Of a stretch of DNA of 64,000 bases, positions 24,338 to 59,983 are shown one piece after another. The notes under the pieces were generated by a model. It was not told where the DNA came from, did no database searches, and saw only the letters and a list, made by a program, of their open reading frames with translations. The stretch is from Candidatus Omnitrophota bacterium (GTDB lineage Bacteria; Omnitrophota; Gorgyraeia; JAFGGP01): positions 153,157-217,156 of the forward strand of contig JAFGGP010000013.1 in the NCBI GenBank assembly GCA_016930485.1, in the 5' to 3' direction. Made by a program: the position numbers and the translations under genes. Numbering within the stretch: the first letter of the stretch is position 1; every line of letters starts with the position of its first letter.

Positions 24338-25867
24338 ATGAAAAATAATACTACAAAAAACATAAAAGATGTTTTTCTCTCCGCTGTCATCGCGAGTGAA
24401 ACGTTTAAGACAATGATTGCACTCTTTGATGAAACGCTTAACCGTCCGCATTGGTGGATTATAGAAAAAGATGCAGGTGTTTTTGTTTCCCCGTTCTGCA
24501 ACACTTCTTTGGTGGAGTGCAGTTATGTAAAGCGTCCAAAAAAAGACGCACGGCTATGTAAAAAAATAATTCTTGAGAAGATAAGGGGCCTTTCGGAAAA
24601 AGAAAAGCACCTCATTACTTTTCGCTGTCACAAAAAACAGGTAGGCATTATTATTCCGTTAGAAGTAGAGTTCAGGAGAATCGGTTTTATGTGTGCGTGC
24701 CCCATTAAAAAAGATACTCCATCGATCGACAGTATTTTATCACTGATAGCCGCCCATATAAAAACAGGGATAGAGAATATCAAAAAGGAGGTTGAACTAA
24801 AAAAACTGTATGATAGTGTGAGACCTCGCGCCCTGGCCCTCTCTACCATTCATACGGTTCACCGGTTAATGGGATCTGCTGTCGATCTTAATGACCTGCT
24901 GCCACGTCTTTCCCGGTTGTGTCTGCAGGTATTCCGTGCCACATACTGTTCTATTATGATAATCGATAATGAAAAGAAAATGCTTTACCCTAAGGCATTG
25001 GTTAATCTTGAACGTGCCGCCAAACCAAAAAAAATCAAAATAGGAGAAGGAATTGCCGGTAAAGTAGCCCAGACAGAAAAGGCCATTTTAAAGAGAAATG
25101 TCCTCTCGGTGCCGCTTATCGATGAAGAACTCATTGGCGTTATTACCATTCGCGATAAACAGAATAACGAGGCTTTTACTGGTGCCGATCAGGAAGTTTT
25201 AGAAACCCTGGCTGAACAATCGGTCATTGCCATTCATAGTGCCCGCATGTATGAGGAGCAGGAAAATCTGACCTTAGGAAGCATTAAATCCATAGCAGCG
25301 GCCCTTGACATTAAAGGAACGTCGGAGTATCGCCGTTCCGAACAGTTTCCGAAACTGGTCAGAACGATTGGCGAAGAGCTCGGTTTGTCCTATATCGATT
25401 TGCGACATCTGTATTACGCTTCTCTTTTGCCGGAAACCGATAAATTTGTCATCCCTGAAGAAATCCTTACCAAATCTTCCCCGCTGAAGAAAAGTGAATA
25501 TGACATCATAAGAAAACATCCGGTAAGGGGGGCGCAGATTATCGAACCGCTTGGCATCCTCCAACCGGTAATTCCTATTATTATGTACCATCATGAAAAG
25601 TATGACGGTACGGGGTACCCCGAAGGTTTGAAGGGCGATAAAATTCCTATTGGGGCACGCATCCTGTGCTTGGCAGAGGCATTTGAGGTGCTTTTTAGAA
25701 AAACCCCTTATCGACAAAGAACAGCAAGTCTTAAAAGCGCCGTTGATGAAATCAAAAAAAACTCGGGCACCCAATTTGACCCGAAAATAGTTAAAGCCTT
25801 CTATAGCGCCTACAAAAAGGGGAAGTTGCGATCGTACTTGGATGGATTAAAAAATGAGAAAAAATAA
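24338..25867 (+). CDS. GAF domain / degenerate HD-GYP domain protein
   Basis: GAF (IAGKVAQTEKAILKRNV...VITIRDK), then an HD-GYP fold keeping HHEKYDGTGYPEGLKG. The H of HS-RV reads RRSEQF and LLHDIGK reads LLPETDK. The start is set to the ATG at 24338, after the dgt stop. Confidence 0.75.
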   Translation: MKNNTTKNIKDVFLSAVIASETFKTMIALFDETLNRPHWWIIEKDAGVFVSPFCNTSLVECSYVKRPKKDARLCKKIILEKIRGLSEKEKHLITFRCHKKQVGIIIPLEVEFRRIGFMCACPIKKDTPSIDSILSLIAAHIKTGIENIKKEVELKKLYDSVRPRALALSTIHTVHRLMGSAVDLNDLLPRLSRLCLQVFRATYCSIMIIDNEKKMLYPKALVNLERAAKPKKIKIGEGIAGKVAQTEKAILKRNVLSVPLIDEELIGVITIRDKQNNEAFTGADQEVLETLAEQSVIAIHSARMYEEQENLTLGSIKSIAAALDIKGTSEYRRSEQFPKLVRTIGEELGLSYIDLRHLYYASLLPETDKFVIPEEILTKSSPLKKSEYDIIRKHPVRGAQIIEPLGILQPVIPIIMYHHEKYDGTGYPEGLKGDKIPIGARILCLAEAFEVLFRKTPYRQRTASLKSAVDEIKKNSGTQFDPKIVKAFYSAYKKGKLRSYLDGLKNEKK

Positions 25868-29819: not shown

Positions 29820-30200
29820 ATGGATGCACAACACGTTGAGAGAAGACGCTTTAAGAGAGAATCGCTCAAGGCACCACTCAAGGTATATAAAACAGGTAAG
29901 AGCGCGTGTCATGAGACAGTATTGCAGGATATCTCCGAAGGTGGGCTCTGTTTCTATACAGAAAAGTTCTTTTCGCGCCATTCGAGGCTGAAGCTCGAGC
30001 TTTTTACCGGCACGCCCCAGCAGTATGCCACTGTCTTTGGAACGGTGCACTGGATAAAAAAAATACCGTATCGTGTCTCGTATCATATAGGCGTCAAATT
30101 CGATGAGATATGCCCAAAGATCGCTACGCGTTTCGATCGAAAACGGATTGAAAAGAGTTTTGAAACATTCCCCACCGAACCGTATACACTCTCAGTCTAG
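29820..30200 (+). CDS. PilZ domain protein (stand-alone)
   Basis: 126 aa. ERRRFKR (RxxxR) and DISEGG (D/NxSxxG) c-di-GMP-binding motifs. Confidence 0.8.
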   Translation: MDAQHVERRRFKRESLKAPLKVYKTGKSACHETVLQDISEGGLCFYTEKFFSRHSRLKLELFTGTPQQYATVFGTVHWIKKIPYRVSYHIGVKFDEICPKIATRFDRKRIEKSFETFPTEPYTLSV

Positions 30201-44355: not shown

Positions 44356-45741
44356 ATGGATGCGAAACGGGGAGGATCAATCCCGTTCTTCAACAAAAAA
44401 GTGCTAAGGCAGGCTGAACGAATCCTCCTTAATCGCTATTTTTGGCTTTTCCGCATCAAACTTTCCTGTATCCTCGTATTCGTCTGGCTGTATGACTTAA
44501 CCGCGATCCTTCTTGTTGCTAAACCCCACCTCGTCGATCGAATCTGGCTATTGCGTCATTTTGATTTTCAGCCGTCTGTTCTGTGCATGCTGTTCGTTTT
44601 AGGGCTGGCGGTCAATTTTCCGTATCCGGGGCTTCTGCAACTTGTAACGCGCTGGCACTGTCATAATCCGATAGCAACAAAACAACGGTTGGTCCATCTA
44701 AGCGGCATGGTAGACCTTGCACTGCTTACCGGTATCAGTTTTTGCTGCGGGAGGGAAAATGCGCTTTTTTCATTCAACGTGTTTATCTTCATCATAGCCC
44801 TCGGCGCCTTTGTATACACCTATAAAACAGGCTTCTTCCTGGCATGCTATTCAAGTATTGCATTCGGAATCCTTTCGCTGGGCGAACATTGGGGATGTAT
44901 TTCGAGCCTTGAGCCATGTATCGGCCTAGCTATCGAAGACGAAGTATTATGCATAATCGGCTATGCGATCCTCTTTTTCGCCGTTGCCTTTATATCTACC
45001 ATATTAACCAGTCCTATGAGAACGAGGGCGCGGGAGTTGAAAAAATGGGGGGCCGTCCTGGAACGAAGACTTAGGGCCGCCCAGATTCAAGTAGTTAACG
45101 CACTCCTGACGACCCTTGCCGCCAAAGATCCCTACACGATGAAACATTCGCGGAATGTGGCGTTTTACGCCTCTCTTATCGCGAAAGAAATCGGACTTAC
45201 GCACCAAGATATTCTGCAGATCAAGCAGGCCTGTAAGCTCCATGATATTGGTAAGGTGGGAATCAGTGAAAAAATACTCAATAAACCAGGCCCTCTTGAG
45301 GCGCAGGAATGGGAAATCATTAAAATGCATACTATCATAGGCTCTGAAATCCTCTCAACCGTCGGTTTCCTTGAAAAAGTTGCCCTAATGGTCAAACAGG
45401 AGCACGAACGGTTTGATGGCCGTGGATATCCTGAAGGGCTAAAAGGCAACGAAATTATCCTGGGGGCCCAGATCATGTCGGTGGCTGATGCCTTTGATGT
45501 CATAGCCTCAAGACGGACCTATAAAGAGTCCCTGTGCATGGATGCAGCCCTTGTGGAGATTGAGAAAAATAGCGGGACCCAGTTCAATCCGGCTGTGGTT
45601 CGGGTCTTTAAAGGTGTCTACGAAAAATATGGACGGAGGATCAAAAAATTCATATCGCTGAGCGAGACCACCAATACCGACCCACGGGACATGGCACCAG
45701 TGCTCGTTACCCAAAGGATGCTTAAAAAACTCTACGGCTAA
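44356..45741 (+). CDS. Membrane-bound HD-GYP domain phosphodiesterase (canonical)
   Basis: 461 aa. About 7 TM segments, then KHSRNVAFYA, KLHDIGK, HERFDGRGYPEGLKG and SVADAFD. All HD-GYP metal ligands are present. Confidence 0.85.
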   Translation: MDAKRGGSIPFFNKKVLRQAERILLNRYFWLFRIKLSCILVFVWLYDLTAILLVAKPHLVDRIWLLRHFDFQPSVLCMLFVLGLAVNFPYPGLLQLVTRWHCHNPIATKQRLVHLSGMVDLALLTGISFCCGRENALFSFNVFIFIIALGAFVYTYKTGFFLACYSSIAFGILSLGEHWGCISSLEPCIGLAIEDEVLCIIGYAILFFAVAFISTILTSPMRTRARELKKWGAVLERRLRAAQIQVVNALLTTLAAKDPYTMKHSRNVAFYASLIAKEIGLTHQDILQIKQACKLHDIGKVGISEKILNKPGPLEAQEWEIIKMHTIIGSEILSTVGFLEKVALMVKQEHERFDGRGYPEGLKGNEIILGAQIMSVADAFDVIASRRTYKESLCMDAALVEIEKNSGTQFNPAVVRVFKGVYEKYGRRIKKFISLSETTNTDPRDMAPVLVTQRMLKKLYG

Positions 45742-50462: not shown

Positions 50463-50903
50463 CTATTGCGGAAAGCTCGGGAGCGTAGAAATAGTAAAAT
50501 CGACCCGTACAGCCTCATCTTTTGCTACGGTAATTTCTTTCATCTGCGTCTCGCCTGTCTCACCTTCCTTGACTGCTATTCGATATCTGCCCGGTACAAG
50601 CTGTTTAAACGAGTAATGGCCGTCTTTTACCTTGATGGTCCGGTATGTCAGGCTGGTAACCGGGGTGCCCTGTAAACCCGCTTTTCCCATGCCTCGCAGC
50701 GTTACCATTGCATTAGCAACCGGCCGGCCCTGTGAATTAACCACCATACCCGATATGGAGCATTCGGAGGCATTTTGCACACCTCCTATACTTTGCACCG
50801 GCGTAATCCTTACACTTTCCCCATGCGCCGAAACCGCATAACCGAGGATGCCGAAAAGAACCGCACCTGTGACCAGTATTGTGTCAACCGATTTCATATT
50901 CAT
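50463..50903 (-). CDS. Secreted carboxypeptidase-regulatory-like (Ig-like fold) domain protein
   Basis: 146 aa. Signal peptide. ISGMVVNSQGRPVANAMVTL...DGHYSFKQLVPGRYRIAV, typical of CarboxypepD_reg repeats. Confidence 0.6.
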   Translation of the reverse strand: MNMKSVDTILVTGAVLFGILGYAVSAHGESVRITPVQSIGGVQNASECSISGMVVNSQGRPVANAMVTLRGMGKAGLQGTPVTSLTYRTIKVKDGHYSFKQLVPGRYRIAVKEGETGETQMKEITVAKDEAVRVDFTISTLPSFPQ

Positions 50904-51487
50904 CGAAGCCGTTCCTTGAGCACAAAACCGGATATGGATTGCCTTAATTCATCCAGACTCATGTGCATTACTTCTTCTTTTTTCTGATACAGCTTTCCTG
51001 TCTCAAGGTCATGAAATATAATGCCATCCAGATCCCGTGAAAGCCGATTGGCCGTCCCGGGTTCCTCCTGCGTAATGAGAATCTTCCCCTGCGCCAACCC
51101 CAGGACATGTCGATATCCCTCCGGGTCCTTTCCGGTCAGGAAAAGAACTGCCTCCTCATCGGGCAAAAACGTCAGGCCGTCATATGCATCCTGCTCCTCT
51201 ATATCGATATAGTTATTAATATGGCGTATGGTAAGCTCCTCTGTCCCCAGATGGTTCTTCCAGTACTCATCGACGTGCAATGTTACAAAGGTCTCCACAC
51301 TCGCTACGTATGGATCCCATACATCCCGTTTGGCTATACACCGGGCAAGGACAATACAGTCTGCCCTTAGCGCCAACTCCTCTATTCCCATTTCAATCAT
51401 AGTAAGGCCATAGGCAGTGGGAATAAGACATGTCATAGTTAGCCCTACACAGACAATAATATGATAAAAAAGCTTCTTTAATGTCAT
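50900..51487 (-). CDS. Secreted hypothetical protein
   Basis: The signal peptide MTLKKLFYHIIVCVGLTMTCLIPTAYG begins at the ATG at 51487. The track start at 51559 would read through the G11 tract and the leader terminator. ATGA coupling to the downstream gene. Confidence 0.5.
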   Translation of the reverse strand: MTLKKLFYHIIVCVGLTMTCLIPTAYGLTMIEMGIEELALRADCIVLARCIAKRDVWDPYVASVETFVTLHVDEYWKNHLGTEELTIRHINNYIDIEEQDAYDGLTFLPDEEAVLFLTGKDPEGYRHVLGLAQGKILITQEEPGTANRLSRDLDGIIFHDLETGKLYQKKEEVMHMSLDELRQSISGFVLKERLR

Positions 51488-51503: not shown

Positions 51504-51570
51504 GTTATATAAAAGGCCCCATTCCATCTCTGGAAAAAGGCCTCTGTATTTGCTACCATATACTATTCCG

Positions 51571-51700
51571 TTTCGGCAGCCCAGCCTTCCGCCTCCGACA
51601 ATACAGTGTGCACGTTAGCGGAACTGAAACTTTGCTCTCCCCTTTTGCAGGAAAGACCCTTGGAACAGGGGCCCCATTCTTACGAATGGTTTGCCTTTTC
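51571..51700 (-). ncRNA. GEMM-I (c-di-GMP-I)-like riboswitch aptamer candidate, copy B
   Basis: GAAAAGGCAAACC-AUUC-GUAA-GAAU-GGGGC...GCAAAG...GG-CUG-GGCUGCCGAAA. Paralogous to 59221-59330, with compensatory changes in two helices. Confidence 0.5.
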
Positions 51701-51721
51701 GTAACTCTATTTTCTAGTTAA

Positions 51722-51750
51722 AGTATGCCACACATAGTATAAATATGCAA
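51722..51750 (-). promoter_or_regulatory. Promoter candidate TTGCAT-N17-CATACT for leader B
   Basis: Same architecture and the same TGG-CATA context as the promoter of leader A (59393-59421). Confidence 0.45.
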
Positions 51751-58706: not shown

Positions 58707-59156
58707 TCATTTTGGGGGTATATCAGCCTGTGGGAAGGAATGTCTCCGCTGCAGCACCGCAACTGTAACCTCAATGAGACCTTCGTCGAGTTCTGCTATA
58801 TGAGAGAAGGCCTCTTTCGTTAGATCAATCACCCTGCCCTCTTCTACAAAACGGAACGCCGGGCCACGGTCATTGACGCGTACGATAACGGATTTATTAT
58901 TACGGATATTTACTACCTCGACAAGCGTCTGAAAAGGGACGCCCCACATAGCACACGTAAGTTCTTTATCATTAAATAGTTCCATATTTGCGGTCGTTGC
59001 CATGATGCCTGGATCATCACAGGAATACCATGATGAAACACCGTACAGTTCGGCGGCAACGACGTCATGCACTTCATCAACCGTACCCTGTGCAAGGGTG
59101 GCCACCGATAAAAAAACCATTATGAAAATGAATAGTGCAAACAGATGGCGATTCAT
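58707..59156 (-). CDS. RlpA-like double-psi beta-barrel (septal ring lytic transglycosylase family) protein
   Basis: Signal peptide MNRHLFALFIFIMVFLSVATLAQG, then SWY...TANMELFNDKELTCA...VVNIRNNKSVIVRVNDRGP. The track start at 59192 lies inside the leader terminator. Confidence 0.8.
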   Translation of the reverse strand: MNRHLFALFIFIMVFLSVATLAQGTVDEVHDVVAAELYGVSSWYSCDDPGIMATTANMELFNDKELTCAMWGVPFQTLVEVVNIRNNKSVIVRVNDRGPAFRFVEEGRVIDLTKEAFSHIAELDEGLIEVTVAVLQRRHSFPQADIPPK

Positions 59157-59173
59157 GCGGACCTCGCATACAT

Positions 59174-59209
59174 AAAAAAAGCCCTGTTTCATCCATAATG
59201 AAACAGGGC
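59174..59209 (-). terminator. Intrinsic terminator (expression platform of leader A)
   Basis: Perfect 12-bp stem GCCCUGUUUCAU/AUGAAACAGGGC, 5-nt loop, U7. It lies between the aptamer and the RlpA-like start codon. Confidence 0.75.
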
Positions 59210-59220
59210 ACAGACAATAA

Positions 59221-59330
59221 GTGGCAGCCCAACCCTCCTTGTGGAGTCGTGGCTTTGCCTCACCGAATTTCCCGATGAGTCCCGGAGATCAAACCGAGAG
59301 CCCCATCTTTACAGATGGTTTGCCTTTTTC
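59221..59330 (-). ncRNA. GEMM-I (c-di-GMP-I)-like riboswitch aptamer candidate, copy A
   Basis: GAAAAAGGCAAACC-AUCU-GUAA-AGAU-GGGGC...GAGGCAAAGCC-ACGA-CUCC-ACAA-GGAG-GG-UUG-GGCUGCCAC. Compare Vc2 GGCAAACCAUUCGAAAGAGUGGGACGCAAAGCC. Confidence 0.55.
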
Positions 59331-59392
59331 ACAGAATCGAAGCAGGCTGTCAAATAACAAAAGGCACGCACACTTCTTGCGTCCTTACTTTA

Positions 59393-59421
59393 ACTATGCC
59401 ATATAAAAAAAGGAAATGCAA
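59393..59421 (-). promoter_or_regulatory. Promoter candidate TTGCAT-N17-CATAGT for leader A
   Basis: Hexamers read directly from the sequence. Same layout as 51722-51750. Confidence 0.45.
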
Positions 59422-59443
59422 GATAGGGGACGAAAATGTTTAT

Positions 59444-59983
59444 TTACTTATCATAGCGATCAACAAAAAACTTTGCTTCTTCGATTTTAAACTTAAAGGA
59501 GGTAAATGGAGGGGGGTCTCTGAAGAAAAAATCAAACGGGAGGGCCTCTCCTGGTTTGAGCGACTTTGATAAATCCCTGATAAAAAAAGACGGGCCCTTT
59601 ACTACCTGGCCCTGGTTAATCAACACAGCAGAAATACTGATAAATTTCAGCGATGACTGTGAATCATTTTGTAAGCGCCCACAAAGCCGTATGCTCCCAT
59701 TGGGGTTTTTTACCAGATCCTTGTCAACGATCTTAAGAAAAAGAAGGCTTCTGTCCGCCGCCCATGAACTATCCTCGCTGCCATCATAGCCAATCCCCCG
59801 TGCGCTACCTCTATCGGCAACACCCTGCCCCCCTTGAACGATAATAGCATCAAAAACCGCCACTGCCTTCTCTTCGGTTTTCCTTGCAAGGTCCTTGACT
59901 TCCTCCCTTGAAAAATTGATTACCCCGGTGTAGTAAGCCCATACAACCGCGACAATCAGTGCCAACAAAATAAGAAATTTCAC
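59444..59983 (-). CDS. Membrane-anchored hypothetical protein
   Basis: 179 aa. A single N-terminal TM and a beta-rich C-terminal domain ending ...GEALPFDFFF (faintly FxLYD-like). Confidence 0.4.
   Translation of the reverse strand: MKFLILLALIVAVVWAYYTGVINFSREEVKDLARKTEEKAVAVFDAIIVQGGQGVADRGSARGIGYDGSEDSSWAADRSLLFLKIVDKDLVKNPNGSIRLCGRLQNDSQSSLKFISISAVLINQGQVVKGPSFFIRDLSKSLKPGEALPFDFFFRDPPPFTSFKFKIEEAKFFVDRYDK

Follow-up and report, generated by a model that had tools for sequence, protein, structure and literature searches.

A putative c-di-GMP-I (GEMM-I) riboswitch with a two-hairpin insert upstream of an RlpA-like gene in a Candidatus Omnitrophota bacterium

Copy 1 and the known GEMM-I families

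Riboswitches for cyclic di-guanosine monophosphate (c-di-GMP) are a main bacterial route linking c-di-GMP to surface and motility genes. The c-di-GMP-I class (GEMM-I, RF01051; type, Vibrio cholerae Vc2) has a stem that was described in 2007 as helices of 2 and 6 base pairs (bp) around a highly conserved internal loop of 3 nucleotides (nt), and GEMM stems were listed as variable in length but not modular (PMC1950547). Close to it stand the c-di-GMP-I-GGC family (RF03167), of the same clan, and GEMM-Ib from Geobacter, which has the same overall fold, senses 3'3'-cyclic GMP-AMP (3'3'-cGAMP) and carries A at position 20 (PMC6140456). Here we report on a GEMM-I-like element, copy 1, at 59334-59218 on the minus strand of a 64,000-nt stretch (the window) of contig JAFGGP010000013.1, positions 153,157 to 217,156, from a Candidatus Omnitrophota bacterium. 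Copy 1 precedes a gene for an RlpA-like protein, and its core is split by two extra hairpins. We consider it probable that this RNA is a functional c-di-GMP-I aptamer of a two-hairpin subtype that controls transcription termination, most likely as an OFF switch. Its structure is a new variation on a riboswitch class that is well known, not a new kind of system. The original prediction, made from the DNA letters alone, had proposed a GEMM-I-like riboswitch with an interrupted core, a terminator platform and an RlpA-like target, and this overall interpretation is supported; the sequence features all lie at the coordinates given there.

The riboswitch leader lies in a 287-nt gap on the minus strand between an upstream open reading frame (ORF), which ends at 59444, and the start codon ATG 59156 (Table 1; leader fold z=-4.5). 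It reads GUG-AAAAA-GGCAAACC-AUCU-GUAA-AGAU-GGGGC, a 41-nt insert, GCAAAGCC-A-CGA-CUCC-ACAA-GGAG-GG-UUG-GGCU-GC-CAC, an 11-nt spacer and the terminator. The core blocks that had been read as GEMM-I-like are present, and the interruption between GAAAAAGGCAAACC-AUCU-GUAA-AGAU-GGGGC and GCAAAGCC...GGGCUGCCAC measures 41 nt (59299-59259).

Copy 1 shares with GEMM-I the blocks AAAGGCAAACC, GRC, GCAAAGCC and UGCC, the elements of a GNRA-capped stem of 2 and 6 bp, the P3 hairpin, a short P1 and the nucleotides G20, A47 and C92. The two also have in common a location in the 5' untranslated region (5'-UTR) with an intrinsic terminator and a gene context of secreted or surface proteins, and orthologous genes carry canonical members. 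When aligned to the consensus, the conserved core is present as the A-rich J1/2 with GGCAAACC, GRC, GCAAAGCC and the 3' UGCC. Both helices of the GNRA-capped stem (2 and 6 bp), its GUAA loop and its AAA and GGC strands are found, but the 3' strand exits the helix after C44 into the inserted hairpins A and B, a departure from the 2007 description. The P3 hairpin (59254-59226) and the closing P1 (GUG/CAC) both covary in the class of insert-bearing sequences described below. Unlike GEMM-I, copy 1 has two extra covarying hairpins (41 nt) between C44 and G45 and scores below the Rfam threshold.

At curated thresholds, Rfam returned only a transfer RNA over the whole window and no match from the c-di-GMP-I clan. 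A relaxed local scan of 59100-59500 gave a single meaningful match, to RF03167 (26.7 bits, E=2.7e-4), which spans the full model but has 58 nt in place of the model's 17. The gathering thresholds are 35 bits for RF01051 and 59 bits for RF03167; in the relaxed scan RF01051 scored below the 26.7 bits of RF03167 and did not attain its 35-bit threshold. No match to c-di-GMP-II (RF01786) was found in 59100-59500 even at E<=10. The two models named in the original prediction, RF01051 and RF01786, thus gave a score below threshold and no match, respectively.

Hairpins A and B have no counterpart among the 87 positions of the Rfam model. Of the 19 insert-bearing loci that were scanned, five exceed the RF01051 threshold with 42-59 bits, each of these five having a long P3. 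The remaining 14 fall below it, and ten of these reach just 30-42 bits on RF03167. Rfam therefore captures one part of the subtype, as matches with a large unmodelled insertion, and misses another, which includes copy 1 and a second copy in the window. With both window copies and 14 of 19 tested relatives below Rfam thresholds, the subtype is partly invisible to threshold-based annotation, so c-di-GMP regulons are likely under-counted in Omnitrophota and similar candidate phyla.

Like RF03167, copy 1 has a short P3 without a tetraloop receptor, and RF03167 is the best-scoring clan member for copy 1 and for many of its short-P3 relatives. We nevertheless give next to no credence to copy 1 being a literal member of that family. 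Its score is far under the threshold of 59 bits, and the family consensus reads GCGAAG where the window has GCAAAG. The apparent distinguishing base, G at position 47, was tested and A was found, so that the base which names the variant (in our own reading of the consensus) is the canonical A. Canonical short-P3 GEMM-I RNAs at two loci (L099 and L142) also score best with RF03167, which indicates that the preference reflects P3 length. Membership in the cGAMP-sensing GEMM-Ib is excluded by G at 59324, the equivalent of position 20; copy 2 also has G at this position.

Table 1. Positions of riboswitch parts and genes in the window
Feature	Position	Strand	Basis or remark
Copy 1 promoter-like site, TTGCAT-N17-CATAGT	59393..59421	-	Read directly; promoter function putative
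Copy 1 aptamer, c-di-GMP-I (GEMM-I) fold with two-hairpin insert	59218..59334	-	Model R1 73.5 bits; RF03167 26.7 bits, sub-threshold
P1 5' strand, GUG	59330..59332	-	Pairs with CAC 59223-59221; model R1 alignment and folding
G20 (59324) and G21-C22 (59323-59322)	59322..59324	-	Alignment to Rfam and R1 consensus
Distal P2 hairpin, CCAUCU-GUAA-AGAUGG, GNRA loop	59303..59318	-	5 of 6 pairs covary in class
Inserted hairpin A, UCUCGG / CCGGGA, 8-nt loop	59280..59299	-	Folding and R1 alignment
Inserted hairpin B, CUCAUCGG / UCGGUGAG, 5-nt loop	59259..59279	-	Abuts hairpin A and G45
P3 hairpin, AGCC-A-CGA-CUCC / GGAG-GG-UUG-GGCU	59226..59254	-	Short, without tetraloop receptor; 7 of 10 pairs covary in class
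Terminator 5' arm, proposed anti-terminator partner of aptamer 5' edge 59332-59321	59197..59209	-	Folding; predicted
Copy 1 intrinsic terminator	59174..59209	-	13-bp stem, 59209-59197 with 59193-59181; U7 59180-59174; stem -20.4 kcal/mol
Secreted RlpA-like DPBB protein, 149 aa	58707..59156	-	DPBB_1 E=9e-15; N-terminal hydrophobic segment
Copy 2 promoter-like site, TTGCAT-N17-CATACT	51722..51750	-	Pattern search
Copy 2, second insert-bearing GEMM-I aptamer	51570..51704	-	R1 55 bits, E=1.2e-11; missed by Rfam gathering thresholds
Copy 2 terminator, GGCCUUUUUCCA...UGGAAUGGGGCC + UUUU	51511..51542	-	Stem -15.3 kcal/mol
Gene after copy 2, 195-aa protein	50900..51487	-	N-terminal hydrophobic segment, no Pfam family
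CarboxypepD_reg-domain gene, downstream of the 195-aa gene	50463-50903		Domain match
HD_5 (HD-GYP-type) protein	44356-45741	+	Domain match
PilZ-domain protein	29820-30200	+	Domain match

The two-hairpin insert in copy 1, copy 2 and related sequences

In the modelled structure, the insert separates C44 from G45 on the 3' side of the internal loop within the GNRA-capped stem. Hairpins A and B create a four-way junction there, with no unpaired linker nt and two base pairs from the ligand pocket. An extra element turning the three-way junction into a four-way one had been foreseen; the four-way junction is borne out, but it is a separate one, and the three-way junction itself is not converted. The GGCA/UGCC closing helix that had been proposed was dropped, as it is absent from the covariation-supported fold. 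In that fold G21-C22 (59323-59322) pair with G45-C46 (59258-59257) and the aptamer is closed by P1 (GUG/CAC). The copy 1 insert folds as two abutting full-span hairpins, and only 0.2% of its dinucleotide shuffles do likewise.

Copy 2 has a similar arrangement. Its hairpin sequences, CCCU/AGGG and UCUUUCC/GGGGAGA, differ from those of copy 1, and its insert likewise folds as two abutting hairpins, as do 0.2-0.5% of shuffles of the window inserts. The start codon of the gene after copy 2 is immediately preceded by a run of ten G (51500-51491).

We scanned metagenomes for the pattern GGCAAACC-N4-GNRA-N4-GG-N{20,50}-GCAAARCC-N{12,42}-GGNTRCC and obtained 52 loci, where our own rough estimate of chance matches is about two. 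Roughly ten of the 52 are canonical GEMM-I RNAs with a second GCAAARCC inside P3, and two (L110, L115) look random. About 35 distinct sequences share the layout of the window, in which GGGRC is immediately followed by hairpin A, then by hairpin B and then by GCAAARCC (GCAAAGCC in the window). Each of these inserts, when folded alone, gives exactly two abutting hairpins, whose sequences show no relation from one locus to the next. Within the GRC triplet, G33 and C35 never vary in the insert-bearing set, though not fixed by the pattern. Two kinds of member carry the insert: some combine a GAAA loop with a receptor-like P3, others a GYRA loop with a short P3 that lacks a receptor. Because the insert occurs in receptor-bearing and receptor-less members alike, we suggest that it acts as a modular add-on.

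MAFFT alignments of the insert-bearing set (A2, A3) displaced the hairpin arms by one column in several rows. A covariance model, R1, was therefore built from a subset of ten metagenome sequences with consistent columns (A4), from which the window was excluded. Its structure was written by hand and comprises P1, the 2-bp helix, the distal GNRA stem, hairpin A, hairpin B and P3. R1 matched the window at 59334-59218 over its full length (model positions 1-118) with 73.5 bits and E=3.7e-16, R1 E-values being rough owing to a shortened calibration, and both inserted hairpins aligned to model stems. It was also R1 that revealed copy 2, which had not been noticed before (55 bits). As a specificity control, R1 was run on the flanks of RlpA genes from 80 diverse genomes (247 kb), where no match at E<=0.1 was found. 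With two abutting hairpins between GRC and GCAAAGCC and a full-length R1 match, copy 1 belongs to the insert-bearing GEMM-I subtype.

Pairs were counted in a realignment of 58 matches to R1 (A5; 53 distinct rows). Standard pairs fill 97.1% of its cells, compared to 29-45% when the partners are slid by 1-3 columns, and none of 500 shuffles reached any of the observed pairing measures. All seven counted pairs of hairpin A (94.9% paired) and all six of hairpin B (97.8% paired) change on both sides, and each pair of the two hairpins uses four to six pair types. The P1 columns also covary over the class (CG 34, UA 12, UG 4). Folding the inserts as single sequences independently gave the same two-hairpin picture.

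Copy 1 could also be a decayed or chance GEMM-like sequence, its core broken by an insertion and its terminator constitutive or merely attenuating, and its position below every Rfam threshold would agree with this. However, about 35 distinct sequences have the same split layout, their two hairpins showing compensatory changes, and this genome holds two copies with unrelated hairpin sequences. Considering also the match to the independently built R1 and the rarity of two abutting hairpins among shuffled inserts, we regard decay or chance as very improbable. The split core thus appears to be a recurrent two-hairpin module and not an oddity of the copy 1 locus. We did not find such an insert described in the literature searched, the coverage of which is incomplete, so that a prior mention elsewhere is possible.

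In natural four-way-junction small RNAs such as the hairpin ribozyme, extra helices without linkers could stack coaxially and pre-organise the core. Hairpins A and B may likewise stack coaxially as one module and so pre-organise the junction; this analogy covers only their possible role, and copy 1 has no sequence or functional relationship to the hairpin ribozyme. A further-reaching and doubtful idea, to which we give a low though appreciable probability, is that the module sets apart a structurally distinct subclass of c-di-GMP-I riboswitches with a four-way junction, present in Omnitrophota and other uncultivated lineages, in which the extra coaxial stack changes pocket assembly. If so, the stack could replace or supplement the tetraloop-receptor contact, or shift Mg2+ dependence, ligand kinetics or even cyclic-dinucleotide specificity, and curated Rfam thresholds would under-count c-di-GMP riboswitches in these lineages. 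A linker-less insertion of two helices at a predicted distance of two base pairs from a structurally solved riboswitch pocket is a natural experiment on how peripheral helices tune folding or ligand response.

Two loci showed other irregularities. At L128 (8066-8205), the insert position holds a partial duplicate of the aptamer 5' half (a second GGCAAACC-hairpin-GGGGC), which gives it a nested or tandem look. The L099 contig has three GEMM-I-like matches within 1.5 kb (1249-1385, 1837-1922 and 2607-2723), one of them canonical and above the Rfam threshold and another with an unusual insert.

Probable ligand and associated genes

A47 intercalates at the ligand in Vc2 structures. Of the two guanines of c-di-GMP, one is read by G20 and the other pairs with C92 (Vc2 numbering; PMC6140456). 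The ligand-contacting positions of copy 1 are of the c-di-GMP type, with G at 59324, A at 59256 (A47) and C at 59224 (the C92 equivalent), as aligned to the Rfam and R1 consensus. Because all three are of this type, the ligand is most likely c-di-GMP. The window also encodes a PilZ-domain protein and an HD-GYP-type protein (Table 1), so the organism has parts of c-di-GMP signalling close to both riboswitches. A second stretch similar to an HD-GYP-type protein lies at 24845-25807 (+).

The same fold could bind another ligand, such as 3'3'-cGAMP or a different molecule, if the inserted hairpins reshape the pocket. The insert sits one to two nt from A47, the best Rfam model is a variant family and not RF01051, and point variants of the GEMM-I fold do change specificity, as with G20A in GEMM-Ib (PMC6140456). 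Set against this are the c-di-GMP type of G20, A47 and C92 and the control of orthologous genes by canonical GEMM-I RNAs. Moreover, the genes downstream of the insert class resemble the published GEMM gene set (PMC1950547), and the presence of the insert in members with and without a receptor suggests an add-on rather than a re-engineered pocket. A ligand other than c-di-GMP is therefore quite improbable. The genes after insert-bearing members encode type IV and Flp pilins, a response regulator, a transglutaminase-like protein and an HD-GYP-type protein that has GAF and PAS domains.

Copy 1 lies between a promoter-like site and the gene for a secreted DPBB protein, a 5'-UTR position typical of GEMM-I. 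The encoded 149-aa protein has a DPBB_1 domain and is identical over its full length to an annotated RlpA-family protein of a Candidatus Omnitrophica genome bin, and the predicted RlpA-like target stands. The start codon at 59156 was also correctly predicted: it gives the DPBB_1 protein and is preceded by a Shine-Dalgarno-like GAGG. A longer ORF starting at ATG 59192 was rejected, as this codon lies inside the 3' arm of the terminator.

GEMM-I-type leaders are present at four of the 11 distinct orthologous RlpA-like loci (window included). The other three carry canonical GEMM-I RNAs above Rfam thresholds: L082 (RF01051, 85.8 bits), L140 (RF01051, 45.2 bits) and L142 (RF03167, 62.7 bits). RlpA had been called an unusual GEMM target. 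This is fair for the literature, but in this lineage the pairing recurs, and the RlpA-like gene appears to be a recurrent GEMM-I target there. Judging from these leaders, the gene for a small secreted RlpA-like DPBB protein is probably a repeated target of c-di-GMP control in this lineage. In a protein-guided scan of GTDB, only L001-L003 were close among the matches listed (80 loci, mostly distant RlpA proteins from many phyla), and the motif was found in none of these three. At L083-L085 (654-1352), an RlpA-like orthologue locus without a riboswitch, a PilZ-domain gene lies immediately upstream.

The three aptamers most like those of the window, at L125, L112 and L094, all precede an ORF (~700-760 in L125) for a conserved protein of about 100 aa with the motif HRVIA-LNREQVD-LD-GKDA-FSSG-KLSRT. 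This protein has no significant Pfam family, and tblastn found no homologue of it in the window.

The predicted promoter of copy 1, TTGCAT-N17-CATAGT at 59421-59393, was found as a site and has a near-identical counterpart before copy 2; it fails a generic sigma-70 scan. In the 64 kb, TTGCAT-N17-CATAST occurs at just two places, before copies 1 and 2, compared to 0.02 expected, a generous statistic given that the pattern was loosened by one base after copy 2 had been seen.

Terminator and direction of switching

The terminator-type expression platform was confirmed. The terminator begins 11 nt past the aptamer and ends in U7, as had been predicted, but its stem, thought to be a perfect 12-bp hairpin, has 13 pairs (12 Watson-Crick and one G-U) around a 3-nt loop. 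In the minimum-energy fold of a 152-nt intermediate that ends after the terminator loop, GUGAAA and GGCA of the aptamer 5' edge (59332-59321) pair with UUUCAU and UGCC of the terminator 5' arm. This edge comprises the P1 5' strand, J1/2 and G20-C22. The fold has -49.7 kcal/mol, compared to -39.2 kcal/mol for the ligand-free aptamer fold, and the duplex of the two segments stands out against shuffles (p=0.043).

Similar complementarity was found in the closest relatives. The 5' edge of copy 2 is complementary to its terminator 5' arm through other sequences (p=0.02). By eye, L125 has ten and L112 nine perfect pairs between these segments (p<0.004 for each), and complementarity was also seen by eye in L094. 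A general anti-terminator rule for the whole insert class was rejected, as only six of the 23 terminator-bearing members reach p<=0.05; the rule holds for the window's own sub-lineage.

Because the aptamer 5' edge, which the ligand would sequester, is complementary to the terminator 5' arm, c-di-GMP is predicted to turn the gene off. Without ligand, the free 5' edge (the P1 5' strand, the A-rich J1/2 and G20-G21-C22) would pair with the loop-proximal part and the base of the terminator 5' arm, the terminator would be unable to nucleate and the RlpA-like gene would be transcribed. With c-di-GMP bound, the 5' edge would be locked in P1 and the pocket, so that the 13-bp terminator could form and transcription would stop at U7. 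On this model we lean towards control by transcription termination with the riboswitch as an OFF switch.

In the opposite arrangement, an ON switch, c-di-GMP would prevent termination and raise RlpA-like expression. Such logic was proposed in the original description for the numerous GEMM RNAs in which terminator and aptamer compete (PMC1950547), and the predicted anti-terminator of copy 1 is imperfect. Here, however, the 11-nt spacer separates terminator and aptamer without overlap, and a folded aptamer therefore cannot exclude the terminator. The sole significant alternative pairing of the terminator 5' arm is with aptamer residues that the ligand would sequester. We therefore consider an ON switch unlikely.

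Several points count against a c-di-GMP-responsive OFF switch of the two-hairpin subtype. No Rfam family attains its curated threshold at copy 1, where the best clan score is 26.7 bits and the threshold 59. Pairing counts in A5 are favoured by the fitting of that alignment to the model. The pattern used to search metagenomes came from the window, with G20, A47 and C92 fixed, so the class gives no independent evidence on these positions. The insert adjoins A47 and may alter affinity or specificity. As for switching, the predicted anti-terminator of copy 1 contains a bulge and a mismatch and is weak beside the terminator (about -10 against -20.4 kcal/mol), and the full-length minimum-energy fold contains the terminator either way. 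The case for the OFF direction therefore depends on kinetics and on a comparison that covers only some five relatives, and other subgroups of the insert class use different expression platforms.

One such platform design, which differs from that of the window, was seen at L093 (564-780), L102 and L129, where the terminator 5' arm repeats the 3' strand of the aptamer itself (AGCCGGGUUGCCG) almost exactly.

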